Origin: Candidatus Roizmanbacteria bacterium GW2011_GWA2_35_19
Lineage (GTDB): Bacteria; Patescibacteriota; Microgenomatia; UBA1406; GWC2-37-13
Assembly: GCA_000990565.1 (NCBI GenBank)
Contig: LBQC01000002.1
Location: forward strand, 6,182-70,181
Direction: 5' to 3'
DNA length: 64,000 nt
This document shows, piece after piece, positions 3,020-16,128 of this stretch. Every line of letters starts with the position of its first letter. Within the stretch, counting starts at the first letter, position 1. The position numbers and the translations under genes are program-made. The notes below the pieces were generated by a model that searched no databases, had not been told where the DNA came from, and saw nothing but the letters and a program-made list of their open reading frames with translations.

Positions 3020-4461
3020 ATTGTATAGATTTGTGATGGCGAGGGGGTAAGTCGAGGAAATAAAGGAGCGATTTTTTTGACTTTCCCTTTTATAACTTTT
3101 AGAATTTTTTCGGATGTTTCTGGCAAAAAAGGCTGAAGATTATAAGAGATTGATTTCAATGTTTTAAAACATTGAAGCAGAAAATCCTTCCTTTCTTCAG
3201 GTGATTTTTTCCAGGGTGCAAAGTCGTCAATGGCTTTATTTAAAGCTTTTATTTCTTTCCAAATTAATTCAAGAATAAGATTGAATTGGAAAGAATTAAA
3301 TAGTTCTTTTGTCCTATTGTCAATTGTCAATTGCCAATTGCCAATTGTTTTTATTTCGTCTTTTTCGGCGAGGGTGGTAAGCCTTGAGACTAAATTTCCA
3401 AGTTCATTGGCAAGATCGGAGTTATAAACCTCGTCCATTCTTCGATACGAAAAATCCCCATCATCGGCAGGCGGGATCTCTTTCAGCAAGTAGTATCTTA
3501 CGGCATCAGTCCCGTATTTTTTGACCAATTTAAAAGGATCAACGACGTTTCCTAAGCTCTTACTCATTTTTTGACCGTTTGATGTAATAAAACCGTGTAT
3601 AAATATTTGGGTTGAATTTGGAAGTCCGGCTGACATAAGCATTGCCTGCCAAATTGCTGATTGCTGTCTTAAATTATCCTTACCGGCAACCTGCATCCCT
3701 GGCCAAAAAATCGAGTAATCGCCTTTTTCATCTGGCCAGCCCAAAGTTGAAATATAAAAAACCAAGGCGTCAAACCAAACGTACATTACGTGATCAGGGT
3801 CGTCAGGAACCGGTACCCCCCAAGGCATCTTATTTTTAAGTCTGGAAACGCTAAAATCCTCAAGACCGGACTTTACAAAAGCCTCGATCTCATCTAGCCG
3901 ATAGTCAGGGACAACAAAGTCAGGGTGATCTTCATAAAGCTGCAGAAGCCTTTTTTGATATTTAGAAAATTTGAAGAAATAATTTTCTTCTTCGATTATT
4001 TCAATCACGAGGTTTGGATGAATAGGACATTTACCCGCATTTAATTCTGAGTCAGTCTTTTCAAGCTCGCACCCGACGCAATATTTTGTTTTATAATTTT
4101 TTTTGTAAATATCACCGTTTTTAAAGCATCGACGCCATAATTCTTGCGCCGCCTTCATATGAGCTTCATCGGTCGTCCTTATGAAATGAGTCGTGCTCAA
4201 ATTGAGAGTTTTTTTTAAATCGTCAAATCGTGAAGAAAACTCTTTGCAGTATTGAAGGGGGTCTTTCTTTGCTTCAAGCGCCTTCCTGTATATTTTTAAT
4301 CCATGTTCATCTGTCCCAAAACCAAAGGCAACTTTGGCGCCAATCAAACGATTAAACCGGGCCAGCACATCAGCCTGGACTATCTCAAGGGCAAAACCGA
4401 TATGCGGATCAGCATTGACATATGGAGCAGTGGTAGTAATATAGAAAGTTTTTTTGGCCAT
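3016..4461 (-). CDS. metG: Methionyl-tRNA synthetase
   Basis: FYITTTAPYVNADPHIG, YVWFDAL and KMSKS motifs. Confidence 0.97.
   Translation of the reverse strand: MAKKTFYITTTAPYVNADPHIGFALEIVQADVLARFNRLIGAKVAFGFGTDEHGLKIYRKALEAKKDPLQYCKEFSSRFDDLKKTLNLSTTHFIRTTDEAHMKAAQELWRRCFKNGDIYKKNYKTKYCVGCELEKTDSELNAGKCPIHPNLVIEIIEEENYFFKFSKYQKRLLQLYEDHPDFVVPDYRLDEIEAFVKSGLEDFSVSRLKNKMPWGVPVPDDPDHVMYVWFDALVFYISTLGWPDEKGDYSIFWPGMQVAGKDNLRQQSAIWQAMLMSAGLPNSTQIFIHGFITSNGQKMSKSLGNVVDPFKLVKKYGTDAVRYYLLKEIPPADDGDFSYRRMDEVYNSDLANELGNLVSRLTTLAEKDEIKTIGNWQLTIDNRTKELFNSFQFNLILELIWKEIKALNKAIDDFAPWKKSPEERKDFLLQCFKTLKSISYNLQPFLPETSEKILKVIKGKVKKIAPLFPRLTPSPSQIYTI
3314..3348. repeat. Five tandem 7-mers (CAATTGY) inside metG
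   Basis: ctattgt caattgt caattgc caattgc caattgt, encoding TIGNWQLTIDNR. Confidence 0.8.
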
Positions 4462-7825: not shown

Positions 7826-8491
7826 CTAATCAATTAATAAATCTTTAATTTTTTTTAATTTGCGCTGATAGTCAACTTGATTTTGGTGGAATTTTTTAAA
7901 TGAATCAATAGACTTAAAATAACTTGTAATTAAATCAGTATTCACAAATTTATTTAAATCCTTGTTTATGTACCATGAATAAGAGGAGTAAGGGTAATTA
8001 GCTAAATCTTCAAAGTCAATTAAATATGAAGTAACATGATTAAGGTGAATATAACGACAAGCATGAAGTAATTCCTCTTCATTGGTTATTCGCTTACACT
8101 TAAAGCTGTTTAAAAAAAGCGATCCTTCGCGATTATTTATAAGATTAAAGCATTTGGCAAAACTGTTTTGGATATTACTAATAAATCTTTTAACTCCAAA
8201 GTCAGCGAGTTGTTTAAGTAGAAAATGATAATGGTTTGGCATAAAGGAATGAGCGTAAATATCAATTAGAGGAGCTGAATCTTTTACTTTTTTTATATAT
8301 GCATTCTGAATTAGAAAATTCATCTTATTATAAATTGATAGTCTGATTTTTTGGTCATACCTATAAAAATCAACAATATTTAAAATTTTGTTTAAGTCCG
8401 ATGTTTCCTTAAAAATACTTTCACTTGCAATCGACTTATTGTAAACATGATAAATTTCCCCAGTTACTATGAGTGGTCTCCTATATGTCAT
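7826..8491 (-). mobile_element. REP-associated tyrosine transposase (RAYT, Y1 HUH family)
   Basis: GEIYHVYNK, MPNHYHFLL (HUH motif), RYIHLN and YPYSSY; flanked by identical palindromes. Confidence 0.9.
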
Positions 8492-11817: not shown

Positions 11818-13095
11818 TTATCTTTCTATTTTAAAAATTGGTAAATTATGGAGCGTAACTTCAGCTTCTTTTAGCCTGTATTTATCTCCCGAATAAAGTA
11901 TCAGCATATCTTCTTTTTTATCTACACTATGATCTAATTTTTTAAGCATATAGATTCCAGCTTGTTTATCATCCGGCGACCCTAGTACTTTTGCGACTGT
12001 ATTGAGGTTGTAATTGTTAATATCCTTTATTTTACCAGAAACAAGTGATTTAATTTCTTTTTTATGACTAGAAAGCTTCAAGTTTCCGCTTGAAACATCT
12101 TTGTTCCCGTTTTGGGCGTGGACGATTTCCCTAAATTTTTTAAGAGCTGCACCTGATTCCAAAATTTTCCGGGCTTCGTCTTCTCCCGATTTAATTTTTG
12201 ATTTCATCTTTTTGTCTTTGTAACAAATATCAAGAAGCATTCCCGCCAGTCTTAAAGCTTTAGCTTCAAGACGCAGCGGACGGTCTTTATCTTGTTCAAG
12301 AACGTATAAGACATCGCGTGCTTCAAGAATCGGTCCAATTCCACGACCGGCCGGTTCAAGCATTTCGTTTATATCAATTACTGTCTTTATTCCAAAATGA
12401 GCCGCCAAGTTTTTAAATTTAGTTGCCACTTTTTCAGCATCGGTAAAATGGTGAATTTTTGCAGTTTTACCAATTGGAAGGTCAAGGGCAAGGTGAGTAG
12501 TTCCCGCAGCTATTTTTTTGGCCATTACCGATATTATAACTTTGTCAAAAGACTCAAATGATAATGGTTCTTCAACCCGGATTATGATGTCGTCAGCTGG
12601 GGCGATACCAAGTTGCCCATTCCAGACAATACACCCGCCAACTTTATCAATTATTTTATAAATCTGAGATGGGGTAAAGTCAACATCTGCAATTGCCTCC
12701 ATTACATCAGCGGTCCCAGCCGGAGACGTGATAGCCCGAGATGATATTTTGGGGATGATAAATCCGGCTGCCGCAACAATTGGCACGATGATCATAGTCG
12801 CTCTCGTCCCAGCGATACCACCGACCGAGTGTTTGTCAGCTACAATTCCTTTAAAGTGGAGTTTATTCCCGGTTTCTACCATTGCTTTAGTGAACTGAAA
12901 AAGCTCAGTTGGCGAGTATCCGTCTTTGAAAGATGAGGCGACAAAATAAGTCGTTAATATATCAGTTAGGTGCTCGTGGGCAATCTCATCCATGATTGCA
13001 TATATTTCCCTATAAGTTAACTTTTTTCCTAATAGTTTTTTTTGAATGGCCGAAATTGCAATAGATTTTACTTTATCTTCGACAGATTTATTCAT
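11818..13095 (-). CDS. AMP phosphorylase-like enzyme (thymidine phosphorylase family, archaeal type)
   Basis: DKHSVGG, PKISSRAITSPAGTADVME and GRGIGPILEARDVL are typical of the AMP phosphorylase subfamily. Confidence 0.85.
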   Translation of the reverse strand: MNKSVEDKVKSIAISAIQKKLLGKKLTYREIYAIMDEIAHEHLTDILTTYFVASSFKDGYSPTELFQFTKAMVETGNKLHFKGIVADKHSVGGIAGTRATMIIVPIVAAAGFIIPKISSRAITSPAGTADVMEAIADVDFTPSQIYKIIDKVGGCIVWNGQLGIAPADDIIIRVEEPLSFESFDKVIISVMAKKIAAGTTHLALDLPIGKTAKIHHFTDAEKVATKFKNLAAHFGIKTVIDINEMLEPAGRGIGPILEARDVLYVLEQDKDRPLRLEAKALRLAGMLLDICYKDKKMKSKIKSGEDEARKILESGAALKKFREIVHAQNGNKDVSSGNLKLSSHKKEIKSLVSGKIKDINNYNLNTVAKVLGSPDDKQAGIYMLKKLDHSVDKKEDMLILYSGDKYRLKEAEVTLHNLPIFKIER

Positions 13096-14716
13096 ATGAT
13101 TGGATTATTTCGGTAATTCTTTTTTGAAACAGCTTTGCCTTGAGAATTAATTTTGAAATGAGATATATTTCTTTTAGATCAACGGCCCAAGATACGAATA
13201 GATAAAGTAGTCCATAAATTATAAAGGTAGTAGCAAGCAGAAAGAAAACATTGATTGTGAAAGATGTATCAAAAATCAAACCATCAAATAATTTCATTAT
13301 AAAATAAGCTATAACAGCCGATGCTCCACTTGCAAAAGCTATTTTCCCAATCTCGCTAAACATAAATTTCAAATCAAAGCCCTTCGTCTTTTTCCATAAT
13401 ATTGTAAACAACGCAGCGCTATTTAAGGTAATTGCGACTGAGAAGGCTATTGCGAGCGACCAAACTGGAAAGTGAAAATAAAAGACAAAAAGGACACTTA
13501 AAATCGTATTTACCAAAATTGATGAAACACTTACATAGAATGGGGTTTTACTATCCATAAACGAGTAAAAGCATCTAGTCAGTAGGTAATAAATGCTATG
13601 AAATGGAAGCGATATTGAAAAATATGAGAGAGTCACTGCAGTCTGGACGGTTGCATCCCAATCGAATTTTTGTCCCCCGAAAAAGAGACGAACAATCGGG
13701 GTTCTGGCAAAGATAAAAAATAATGCCAAAGGTATTGTCAAGAATAAAATATTTAAAATAGAATCAGTAATAATTTTCTTAAACTCGTCGATTTTTTGCT
13801 GCCTGTATATTTCAGTCAAGTATGGGAGTGAAGCCTGACCGAAAGCAATCCCGATGACTGAAACCGGTAAAAGTTGTAAATGCTGGGCCAAATAAAAAAT
13901 AGTGTATGCCCCACCACCTAAAAGTGTAGCCAATGAAAGGTCGATTGTTGCATCAATCTGGGCGACTACAACCGTAAAAGCTCGGGGGATAACCAACCTA
14001 ATAAACTCAATAAGGCCTTGGGTTTTTTTAAGTATAAATTTATACTGAAAGTCAGACTTCAAAAGTAGGGGTAATTGGATAGAAAAAAGTAAAAAAGCCC
14101 CAAATACTACTCCCCAAATCGGAGCTAATAGTGAAATAGTTGGATAGAAAAAAATTGTTACGCCAATAATGGTCAGATTATAGATAATCGGGGCGGTAGC
14201 CGAAAGTAAAAAAGTCTTGTTAGCCTGTCCAATTCCTGTTAAAAAATTTCCAAGGACAAAAAAAGGTAATTGGCCTAAAAGTAAAATTCTAGAGTAAGCT
14301 ATTATTTGCTCCATTTTTTCCACTCCATAACCTGGTGTGATCAGTGGAATTAATTGGTCAAGAAAAAGTGAAATGATTACAACAAAAAGGAGTAAAAAAA
14401 CCAATATCAAATTAATAATAGACGAAATATTTTCACTTAATTCTTTTTTATTCTCCTGATATTTTAAATAAATAGGGATAAATGTTGAAGTTAGGGCGCC
14501 AGTAATCAATACTTCAAAAATTAGATCGGGGATTCGAAACGATGCAAAAAAAATATCAAGTTCTTCTGTCCCAAAAAAACCGGCGAGTATCCTATATCTC
14601 AAAAATCCTGATAACGAAGTCAAAACAATCATAAACGACAGTAAAACCGCCGAAGAAAAAATGCTTTTTTGTTTTTGGAAAATAAAATCGGAAGTCTTCC
14701 TTATAAATCGCTCCAT
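13088..14716 (-). CDS. murJ: Lipid II flippase MurJ
   Basis: ASFRIPDLIF..GAL...FIP motif, QLLPVSVIG, and many TM helices. Confidence 0.95.
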   Translation of the reverse strand: MERFIRKTSDFIFQKQKSIFSSAVLLSFMIVLTSLSGFLRYRILAGFFGTEELDIFFASFRIPDLIFEVLITGALTSTFIPIYLKYQENKKELSENISSIINLILVFLLLFVVIISLFLDQLIPLITPGYGVEKMEQIIAYSRILLLGQLPFFVLGNFLTGIGQANKTFLLSATAPIIYNLTIIGVTIFFYPTISLLAPIWGVVFGAFLLFSIQLPLLLKSDFQYKFILKKTQGLIEFIRLVIPRAFTVVVAQIDATIDLSLATLLGGGAYTIFYLAQHLQLLPVSVIGIAFGQASLPYLTEIYRQQKIDEFKKIITDSILNILFLTIPLALFFIFARTPIVRLFFGGQKFDWDATVQTAVTLSYFSISLPFHSIYYLLTRCFYSFMDSKTPFYVSVSSILVNTILSVLFVFYFHFPVWSLAIAFSVAITLNSAALFTILWKKTKGFDLKFMFSEIGKIAFASGASAVIAYFIMKLFDGLIFDTSFTINVFFLLATTFIIYGLLYLFVSWAVDLKEIYLISKLILKAKLFQKRITEIIQSYE

Positions 14717-14803: not shown

Positions 14804-14833
14804 ACCTATTGACATCGGCCGTCACAAATAGGT
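14804..14833. repeat. 30-bp palindromic site overlapping the promoter of the PaaX/Cas2-like gene
   Basis: ACCTATT-gaca-TCGGCCGT-caca-AATAGGT; overlaps TTGACA (14809-14814) and TATAGT (14833-14838). Confidence 0.8.
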
Positions 14834-14843
14834 ATAGTCAATT

Positions 14844-15431
14844 ATGGCTAAGATGAAAAAGTTTAAAAAAGGAGAAATTGCGAAAATAATTTTAGCCACA
14901 ATCGGAATTGGAGCTATTCTAGGAGGGACAGTATTAATAACACCTAACTTCCCCATCATAATTGGTTCATTCATAAAACTCATTAAGGAAATCAAGGGAA
15001 TCAAACTGCCAAAATTAAAAGTGAAAAGAACTCTGAAACTATTAGAAAAAAGAAAGATACTAAATTTAGTAATAAAAAATAGCGAAGTTTATATTGAGGT
15101 GGAAGATGCCTGGAATATAGAAATTCTCAAATATTCGATTCAAAGTTTACTTGCAATGAGAAAAAAATTAAAATGGCAAGGTAAGTGGTTTTTGGTGATA
15201 TTTGATGTGCCTGAAGAACAAAGAAATAAACGATATTATTTACGGAAATTTTTGAAAGAAATCGGTTTTTATCAGTATCAACAAAGCGTTTACGTCTTTC
15301 CATATGAATGCGAAAAAGAAATCATTTTAATAAAAAAAATAATTGAGGGAGGAAAATATCTAAGTTATATAGTTGCAGAAAAAGTTGAATACGAAGATAA
15401 ATTAAAAACCTACTTTCATCTACCTATTTGA
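14844..15431 (+). CDS. PaaX-like protein (putative winged helix plus Cas2-like C-terminal domain)
   Basis: WQGKWFLVIFDVPEEQRNKRYYLRKFLKEIGFYQYQQSVYVFPY matches the PaaX central/Cas2-like motif. No CRISPR array or cas1 in the window. Confidence 0.8.
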   Translation: MAKMKKFKKGEIAKIILATIGIGAILGGTVLITPNFPIIIGSFIKLIKEIKGIKLPKLKVKRTLKLLEKRKILNLVIKNSEVYIEVEDAWNIEILKYSIQSLLAMRKKLKWQGKWFLVIFDVPEEQRNKRYYLRKFLKEIGFYQYQQSVYVFPYECEKEIILIKKIIEGGKYLSYIVAEKVEYEDKLKTYFHLPI

Positions 15432-15451
15432 AACGGCCGTTGGAGATAGGT
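15422..15451. repeat. Second 30-bp palindromic site, overlapping the stop codon of the PaaX/Cas2-like gene
   Basis: ACCTATT-tgaa-ACGGCCGT-tgga-GATAGGT; same geometry as 14804-14833. Confidence 0.8.
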
Positions 15452-15661: not shown

Positions 15662-16081
15662 ATGGTGTTTTTTGGTGAATATCAAATTAATTTCTCCGGA
15701 TCTGGCCGTTTATTACTACCAAAAAAAGTCCGAGATCTTATAAAAGGAAATGTATTTATATTGACAAAAGGTTTTGGAAACTGCTTGTCAGGATATGATA
15801 AAGACGATTGGGAAAAAAGAGCCTCGGAATTATTAAATCCCTCGCTTCTTCAGCCGACTGACATGGATCAAAGAAGGTCCATTTTCTCCGCTTTGGCATA
15901 CCTAGAAATTGACGATCAAGGTAGATTTGTCATCCCAAAAAATTTACTTGAATATGGCCAACTTAAAGAAAAAGCGGTTGTAATCGGAGTTGGCGACCAT
16001 TTCGAGGTCTGGGACGCGAAGAAGTGGGAGGAATACACAAAAAATTCGAAATCCAAAGTTCAAATGTCAAATGTCAAATGA
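15662..16081 (+). CDS. mraZ: Transcriptional regulator MraZ
   Basis: FFGEY, GRLLLP, DDQGRFVIP and GVGDHFEVW motifs; first gene of the dcw cluster. Confidence 0.95.
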   Translation: MVFFGEYQINFSGSGRLLLPKKVRDLIKGNVFILTKGFGNCLSGYDKDDWEKRASELLNPSLLQPTDMDQRRSIFSALAYLEIDDQGRFVIPKNLLEYGQLKEKAVVIGVGDHFEVWDAKKWEEYTKNSKSKVQMSNVK

Positions 16082-16128
16082 ATTATATGAGCTTTGTAGT
16101 TTGTCATTTGATTTTTTGATTTAAATTT

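Follow-up and report, generated by a model that had tools for sequence, protein, structure and literature searches.

Why should a gene encoding a protein of only 195 amino acids be enclosed between two copies of the same 30-bp palindromic dyad, one placed over its promoter and the other over its stop codon? The question is raised by a locus of the ultra-small (CPR) bacterium Candidatus Roizmanbacteria bacterium GW2011_GWA2_35_19, contained in a stretch of 64,000 nucleotides, hereafter called the window, in which such a gene (px, a name used here) separates murJ from mraZ. The earlier note on this DNA had considered that an upstream dyad alone would fit autoregulation, whereas the pair suggested either a single-gene mobile cassette provided with its own end sites, analogous to RAYT/REP, or a DNA-looping repressor. 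The features on which the following argument is built are:

13088..14716, minus strand: murJ, the left host gene, outside the unit
14804..14833, no strand: upstream 30-bp dyad, made of outer 6-bp arms, 5 loosely conserved bases and an inner 8-bp core around CGGCCG
14809..14838, plus strand: putative sigma-70-like promoter, -35 TTGACA, 18-nt spacer, -10 TATAGT, assigned by consensus match alone
14844..15431, plus strand: px gene, a 195-aa mini-PaaX/Cas2-fold ORF, identified by ORF, profile and homologue searches
14961..15143, plus strand: predicted winged helix-turn-helix, approximately residues 40–100, from a low-confidence model and weak TrmB matches
15171..15398, plus strand: Cas2-like / PaaX middle domain, residues 110–185, from profile and structure matches
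15204..15206, plus strand: Asp121, the Cas2 beta-1 aspartate, shared by 115 of 116 short homologues, the 8 site-less housekeeping paralogues having Glu instead
15282..15284, plus strand: Gln147, which covaries with the two bases at the centre of the dyad (covariation analysis)
15422..15451, no strand: downstream 30-bp dyad, holding the last three codons and the stop; putative right boundary of the unit
15662..16081, plus strand: mraZ, the right host gene, outside the unit

The px locus, its family and its protein

A search of the whole window for the dyad pattern, with up to 3 mismatches allowed, returned 14804–14833 and 15422–15451 only, and 0 of 100 shuffles of the window sequence contained any match. 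The claim of the earlier note that the dyad occurs exactly twice holds for the window but not for the genome, in which two further copies lie inside genes that we take to be trpS-like (C1:89633 and C2:2845), a decayed copy is accompanied by the last bases of the px gene (C7:8942) and another decayed copy is found in a presumed leuS-like gene (C30:759). The promoter hexamers match the consensus at 11 of 12 positions. The upstream dyad had been described as extending across both hexamers; in fact it contains the whole -35 (14809–14814), but just the first base of the -10 (14833–14838). This overlap with the -35 box would fit repression by a protein bound there, and the dyad is likely, on sequence grounds, to be both an operator and the left boundary of the unit. 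The second dyad does include the stop codon, as had been noted, the TGA of px (15429–15431) being inside it, and no intrinsic terminator was found there. Two other features of the window may be recorded: the 3′ end of mraZ (16049–16122) carries a 30-nt inverted repeat built of short tandem units, and a RAYT-like Y1 transposase gene is present at 7826–8491 on the minus strand, with 5 such matches in the own genome. The RAYT-like copies of relatives are flanked by perfect 26–33 bp hairpins, unlike the px sites, and the RAYT-like protein of the own genome had no match in the fetched loci that were checked.

The named homologues of px belong to Ca. Roizmanbacteria or Patescibacteria and bear the database labels “CRISPR-associated endonuclease Cas2” or “PaaX regulator”, both of which are ill-fitting. 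The family is present in 43 of 251 sampled genomes of the phylum, with up to 11 matches each (E ≤ 1e-12), and no relative was found with this query among the IMG/VR viral contigs. From the fetched loci 126 distinct full-length ORFs were pooled, truncated ORFs and duplicates having been removed, and a fixed automatic rule was applied to all of them for the scoring of paired dyads. A pair of dyads of their own accompanies 91 of the 116 short homologues across Patescibacteria (L051, one of the 91, was scored on another repeat, the true dyad pair being present there), which bears out the expectation that CPR homologues would have clade-specific paired palindromes; among the 10 long homologues the pair is found at the 2 having Asp121 and at 0 of the 8 housekeeping-type members having Glu. 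The own genome contains, in addition to px, two more short paralogues (~50% identity), each between different dyads centred on CGATCG, and a long PaaX-like gene of 265 aa without dyads. At these other short paralogues (C34:14413–14553 and C40:615–760) a third, inverted dyad follows ~50 bp past the second, both loci being at contig ends and having near-identical flanks. In another locus (L036, near 3520–3620) a MITE-like inverted-repeat element of ~80 bp with a short duplication splits the downstream dyad, which is intact in L037. A literature search, with subscription papers and supplements outside its range, found no description of the family; the accessible part of a Roizmanbacteria CRISPR paper (PMC6509639) deals with true CRISPR loci only.

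Residues 110–185 of px match PaaX_M (PF20803, E 1.5e-19) and Cas2 (PF09827, E 2.1e-5), and two Cas2 profiles are above their cut-offs (PF09827, 25.1 bits vs 23.8; TIGR01573, 29.3 vs 24.5); the full-length PaaX profile TIGR02277 is far under threshold (17.6 bits vs 264.55), and px ends 10 residues past PaaX_M. The AlphaFold model is modest (pLDDT 65.8, pTM 0.42) and superimposes on Cas2 8ia4 (Z 9.3, rmsd 2.8, 75 aligned), SSO8090 (8.3) and PaaX 8a39 (Z 7.8, rmsd 2.6, 79 aligned), comparisons that barely covered the fold of the N-terminal part; profiles and structure together uphold the Cas2/PaaX-like nature that had been assigned to the C-terminal domain. Foldseek gave no match in the PDB at E ≤ 0.001, a PDB sequence search returned just one Cas2 (E 0.58) and an ESM Atlas search with the N-terminal part yielded nothing above 0.9. 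This part, modelled with low confidence as helix-helix-beta-hairpin, is likely a winged helix, as suggested by the model and by weak TrmB matches in 47 of 103 relatives. The homodimer prediction scored 0.28 vs a mark of 0.42 and carries weight neither for nor against a dimer. The invariant residues include W111, W115, F120, D121, P123, K129, R130, R134 and S148; among them there is no His, no HUH motif and no Tyr- or Ser-recombinase motif, and the families listed for 103 members (25 of 38) do not include Y1_Tnp. Cas1 (PF01867) had no match in 5 of 5 genomes (the own one, 87% complete, and four relatives) in a search whose controls rang in 7 of 14 cases, and a crude repeat scan of the same 87% complete own genome found no CRISPR array; the statement that neither cas1 nor an array is present here can be extended, as far as cas1 is concerned, to the four relatives.

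Probable reading of the dyad and mobility of the gene

Within loci, the two halves of the dyad are conserved at positions 1–6 and 12–15 (0.82–0.98) and less so at positions 7–11 (0.62–0.70), and of 87 loci 86 have C at position 13; loci that were mis-registered or odd, 6 in number, were excluded from this analysis. A link between residue 147 and the centre of the dyad was first noticed by eye and then scored and scanned: Gln, His, Gly or Ala is found with a GC centre and Lys, Arg or Asp with an AT or TA centre, the two being concordant in 79 of 80 scorable loci (12 of 92 were unscorable). On a tree built without those columns each trait undergoes 8 changes, and 5–6 of 6 independent pairs go in the same direction with 0 opposite, a result that is marginal by the sign test (p 0.03–0.06). 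In an unbiased scan of the 195 columns residue 147 is top for the central base, residue 124 is first for half-site position 14 and residue 127 for position 12, the outer arm giving weaker signals that come mostly from N-terminal residues. Two loci (L034 and L042) harbour the px variants Lys124/Asn127 together with an altered dyad centre, an apparent natural specificity switch.

As to the form in which the DNA is read, the halves of the window class are complementary at positions 7–12 to the extent of 0.422 vs 0.419 for random halves (77 sites), so that reading of the double strand is likelier than that of a hairpin; in the second class there is some excess (0.50 vs 0.40 random, 76 sites). Both the clade-specific pairs and the residue–base covariation speak for the protein recognition that the earlier note had proposed, and the px product likely recognizes the dyad, binding it as a dimer.

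Gene-less murJ–mraZ junctions and homology that ends at the dyads indicate, from sequence comparison, that the px gene is mobile. The neighbouring genes are widely different among 58 px loci, although some clades keep a common locus, and no conserved neighbouring antitoxin was found across the loci compared; the stable synteny that would speak against a mobile unit is not seen. Of 23 other mraZ loci of the same genus, 14 are gene-less, with murJ 53–164 bp away; px is found within 1.5 kb in 2 and other cargo in 1, and murJ is not seen in the remaining 6. The empty alleles anticipated by the earlier note do exist, but not with the single site expected in them: the dyad is found in 0 of 14, the best fit having at least 7 mismatches in each. 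Since these alleles come from other species, small target duplications could have decayed. Three genomes (G002, G017, G058) have px in the murJ–mraZ gap, accompanied by cargo that differs among them, and in the first two the gap contains an extra dyad. A comparison of flanks, for which 120 of 160 homologue pairs having at least 80% identity were kept, 40 being dropped for short flanks, shows that similarity ends no more than 4 bp from the upstream site in 107 of 120 pairs and from the downstream site in 100 of 120, these pairs being not independent. These breaks, the varied neighbours and the gene-less junctions all support the view of a mobile unit that comprises a single gene and has the sites as its boundaries.

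The ends of this unit do not seem to be fixed. One locus (L125) has a single hybrid site, made of the upstream-left and downstream-right halves relative to L175/L141, with the crossover in the shared central 10 bp; in L143, L184, L185 and L194 the crossover is at the outer arm, and the junctions at px sites vary by 0 to ~20 bp. Such variation inside the dyad does not support the cassette with its own end sites as the earlier note had worded it. Nor did circular junctions come to light, no joint between the two sites being found in 8 runs assembled as contigs, which cannot show absence. A joint 15604→14788 that “goes back” was rejected as a circle, since a relative with 95% identity (L176) is arranged in this way; another, 14674→15422, has unknown letters between its ends and is most likely from another species. 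Near-identical px copies occur under different taxon labels in L003 and in the genome G290, a case not counted as gene transfer because mis-binning is possible.

Some further observations concern these junctions. A px remnant is present in L130 (95–150), where px codons 1–4 and a stop come after an upstream-type site. In the murJ–mraZ gap of L001, L051 and L067 ~50–70 bp of the 5′ end of murJ are duplicated past the cargo, be it px or not; judging from sequence, this gap is a general accretion spot at which the gene start is restored. In L063, L070, L072 and L080, 41 bp before mraZ, the -35 region resembles the left arm of the upstream site, and the mraZ -35 region is possibly a pre-existing half-site.

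Solo dyads and their presence in housekeeping genes

In a metagenome collection 99 stretches have the exact window-class pattern; of 88 non-duplicate sites of this class, 23 adjoin a px gene and 26 fall within long ORFs, the other 39 being solitary and in some cases at contig ends. Pairs of solo dyads bracket Phd-PIN (L156) and DUF433-DUF5615 (L193) toxin–antitoxin modules. Within the genus, window-class dyads are present in 17 of 43 genomes, with up to 11 copies, and 24 of 43 have a second class, with up to 28 copies, the reversed-pattern controls giving 0 in both cases. The distant genome G139 contains a class of its own, with 8 sites, 4 of which are away from px genes, and none were found in four other genomes. 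The dyad class present in a genome matches a px clade of its lineage. Among the 25 genomes of the genus covered by both the px and the dyad survey, extra sites are present in each of the 5 that possess a window-clade px and in 4 of the 20 that do not, kin being not independent, and many complete relatives have neither the gene nor window-class sites. G008 and G021 have neither short px genes nor window-class sites, while in G052 (90% complete) there are 9 window-class sites and the window-clade gene was not found. A glmS-derived site occupies an intergenic spot in L146.

The dyads that lie inside genes were studied by comparing alleles, the names of the host genes being derived from weak Pfam matches (SIS, DHHA1, GATase, DCD) and characteristic motifs, and those of trpS and leuS being presumptive. 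Of 30 trpS alleles, 6 have the site at 0–2 mismatches and none at 3–4; the site alleles are gap-free against their closest site-free counterparts, with several residues changed. In glmS 9 of 30 alleles have the site at 0–2 mismatches and all 30 are gap-free, the mismatches forming a continuum of 0–11 that fits stepwise gain or decay equally well as one-step copying. A chance origin of the trpS copies of the own genome was rejected on the basis of the site survey and of the trpS and glmS allele comparison; these copies belong to a duplicated block with trpS-like genes (C1:86000–93000 and C2:476–6109), having the same site in both, which represents either strain mixing or a segmental duplication. 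In recJ 30 of 30 alleles are of equal length between anchors, and a single 30-bp position is occupied by the window's class in 6 alleles, and by the class found around L007/L094 in 5; in the own genome it holds a dyad similar to the class associated with the other paralogues there. One position thus carries, as judged by sequence class, dyads of three different protein clades.

Insertions are seen elsewhere. Of 30 alleles of a dcd-like gene, 22 have 23 codons between anchors, 3 bearing the site have 31–33, 1 has 21 and 4 contain unrelated inserts; of 29 alleles of a carA-like gene, 20 have 26 codons, 4 with a second-class site have 36–37 and 5 carry other inserts. The in-frame dyad insertions in these two genes amount to +24 to +33 bp. 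The loops in which px sites are found also take REP-like hairpins and tandem hexamers (L415, L416, L418, L419, L441, L454, L456, L466), and the unrelated inserts accepted by the host loops and by the murJ junction suggest that hosts of this genus have a general route by which short insertions are acquired. Of the in-gene halves, 20 of 44 are identical at positions 7–12 to a gene-flanking half, compared with 8.8 ± 2.2 under one null (reached by 0 of 5000 shuffles) and 10.5 ± 3.8 under another (67 of 5000), a match that correlated base preferences could inflate. Altogether, the alleles indicate that the solo dyads of housekeeping genes are whole-unit in-frame insertions or length-neutral overwrites, and it is likely that the px protein helps their insertion into, or their writing over, these genes.

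Candidate mechanisms and their implications

Compared with systems already described, the px unit lacks, in its sequence, the defining properties of RAYT, PaaX, CRISPR Cas2 and fixed-end cassettes. It resembles the REPtron (PMC8266576; see also PMC3337134 and PMC3116915) in having one gene between cognate palindromes and dispersed solo copies, and in this layout the RAYT/REP analogy survives; it does not extend to the protein, px being a winged helix plus Cas2 fold without HUH motif or catalytic Tyr pattern, nor to the dyad, which has a symmetric core and a loose middle, with no GTAG tetranucleotide beside the window's sites, no hairpin selection in the window's class and a modest excess in the second. 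Furthermore, many px dyads are inside coding sequence and the px gene itself is multicopy and relocating. With PaaX (PDB 8a39, 3l09; PMC9493321, accessible part) px shares the Cas2-like middle domain, firmly, the N-terminal winged helix, as far as weak matches and a pLDDT-66 model allow, and a site over its own promoter. It differs from PaaX in being without the C-terminal phenylacetyl-CoA-binding domain (195 vs ~280–305 aa), in having murJ and mraZ instead of paa genes as neighbours, in a dyad with a read core that is unlike the TGATTC(N27)GAATCA operator of the same source, in the second site at the stop codon and in its mobility. CRISPR Cas2 and VapD (PF09827, TIGR01573; PDB 8ia4, 3exc) have in common with px the ferredoxin-like domain, the beta-1 Asp and a Q-x-S motif, but px is fused to a predicted DNA-binding domain, has no cas1 or array and appears to read bases in a sequence-specific manner. 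Unlike insertion sequences and site-specific cassettes, px has empty alleles without an att-like site (14 of 14) and junctions varying by 0 to ~20 bp.

In pdif modules and integron cassette arrays cargo, often consisting of toxin–antitoxin pairs, is held between repeated short dyads. Px-type dyads also bound toxin–antitoxin cargo; however, px has no linked tyrosine recombinase, the core is symmetric, the crossover position is not fixed and it is px, rather than a recombinase of the host, with which the sites covary. Finally, RPE (PMC10969869, accessible part) are likewise in-frame palindromic units inside unrelated housekeeping genes, but they measure ~150 bp against the ~30 bp of the px dyad, which moreover can replace host codons in a length-neutral way and is tied to a cognate gene whose specificity it follows.

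That px binds the dyad, that the dyad acts as a boundary and that spread depends on px is, as a joint proposition, very probable. A complete chain in which the protein is a self-repressing dimer, the site a recombination hot spot and the Cas2-like domain a nicking device is a tentative proposal, to which we give somewhat less than an even chance. According to this chain a px dimer would bind the dyad and, by analogy with PaaX, shut off its own promoter, the winged helices presumably reading the outer 6 bp and the paired Cas2-like domains the inner 8 bp of double-stranded DNA through residues 124, 127 and 147. The bound dyad would be a hot spot of recombination, probably through nicking by the Cas2-like domain; since the class of the sites agrees with the px clade resident in the genome, the bound site is presumably recombinogenic in a px-dependent way. 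Short-homology repair by the host would mend the nick or break, whether the site is a full or a near-cognate one, with another copy of the site as template, and the outcome would be either an exchange of flanks, whereby gene or cargo moves and hybrid sites arise, or a local conversion, giving overwrites and insertions; in essential genes only frame-compatible events would survive.

Nicking is favored by the retention of Asp121 in all but one of the 116 short homologues. The accessible text of PMC6182153 reports that the S. pyogenes Cas2 has no nuclease activity despite its aspartate and that Cas2 active-site mutants still support spacer acquisition; since some Cas2 proteins have no nuclease activity, the conservation of Asp121 does not decide catalysis. 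Other data are at odds with the nicking chain: the invariant residues include no Tyr/Ser-recombinase or HUH motif, the crossovers are in the core of some hybrids and in the outer arm of others, the empty alleles are without a target site, the host loops and the murJ junction also accept unrelated inserts, the 0–11 mismatch continuum of glmS fits stepwise change too, the residue-147 sign test is marginal (p 0.03–0.06), the flank-comparison pairs are not independent and a nuclease cutting sites in essential genes should be costly. What would happen if px had no catalytic activity at all? It would only bind, repress and pair sites, protecting 30–45 bp of incoming or degraded DNA as a footprint and tethering it to near-cognate sites, while host recombination or template switching did the copying. 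This fits the size of the transferred unit, about one footprint and often with 5–20 bp of donor flank (the C7 remnant, L146), the variable crossover points, a Cas2 Asp that can be present without catalysis (PMC6182153, as above) and the dimerization of PaaX through the same domain (PMC9493321, accessible part). Yet Asp121 is near-invariant in site-flanked members and Glu in site-less paralogues, and the rewriting of the recJ position by different classes requires efficient targeting of poorly matching DNA; we regard this purely binding role as rather unlikely and rank nicking with templated repair ahead of it, an order that is itself held tentatively.

The remaining explanations have far less to recommend them. 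If px did no more than repress itself with the help of an auxiliary, looping operator, its gene being moved by ordinary transformation and the extra sites being passive scars of direct-repeat indels, the dyad over the promoter would be accounted for, PaaX being a repressor of its own promoter (PMC9493321, same part), as would hybrid single sites, which slippage can make, and a murJ–mraZ gap accreting cargo with or without px; the up to 28 solo sites per genome, the site-only 30-bp insertions, the gap-free amino-acid-changing overwrites in essential genes and the homology ending at sites would not, and this explanation is improbable. Slightly less credit can be given to the idea that the dyads are REP-like and mobilized in trans by RAYT-type HUH proteins of the host, with px as no more than the binder of the dyads. 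Y1 transposase genes do exist in 5 of 5 genomes tested, one at 6.3 kb from the px locus, the layout is REPtron-like (PMC8266576, accessible part) and the second class has some excess pairing (0.50 vs 0.40), but a px-type site is found at 0 of 14 RAYT-like loci, several of which have perfect hairpins of their own, G008 and G021 have RAYT genes and are without short px genes and window-class sites, and the halves of the window class are not self-complementary beyond random, whereas TnpA-REP needs folded single strands (same source). Very improbable, too, are scattered sites that arose by point mutation as a selected regulon or as chromosome-organizing elements of the parS/matS kind: a recJ position re-tuned to the resident protein class and the intermediate match levels in glmS would agree with them, against which stand the whole-unit insertions, the copied loosely conserved positions, the placement in the middle of coding sequences and the many complete relatives without the gene and window-class sites. 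Least credible of all is a self-repressed VapD/Cas2-like RNase toxin or defence gene, to which the fold common to Cas2 RNases and VapD and the toxin–antitoxin pairs between solo sites might point; its Cas2-like domain covaries with DNA bases, there is no conserved antitoxin neighbour, and the downstream and dispersed sites are left unexplained.

In its strongest form, to which we attach a doubtful and slightly smaller chance than to the nicking chain described above, px would be a writer of DNA: a 195-residue dimer with an amino-acid-to-base code would cut a 30-bp site and near-sites, and repair would copy the site into or over host genes. If this were true, the px gene and toxin–antitoxin cargo would be shuttled between sites, a new class of minimal selfish element would extend across Patescibacteria and Cas2 would be a sequence-specific catalytic core working without Cas1, transposase or recombinase. 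If px nicks, it would be a very small site-specific nuclease having natural specificity variants, and the Cas2 fold would have a role outside CRISPR. Even without catalysis, px and its dyads are a phylum-wide system of gene plus site that alters essential protein sequences in reduced genomes. Px is a named candidate for the protein by which short palindromes enter coding sequence, and the residue-147 code makes its role testable by a single point swap. In the related genomes, a DNA motif and the gene tied to it would be spreading by a route not described before.
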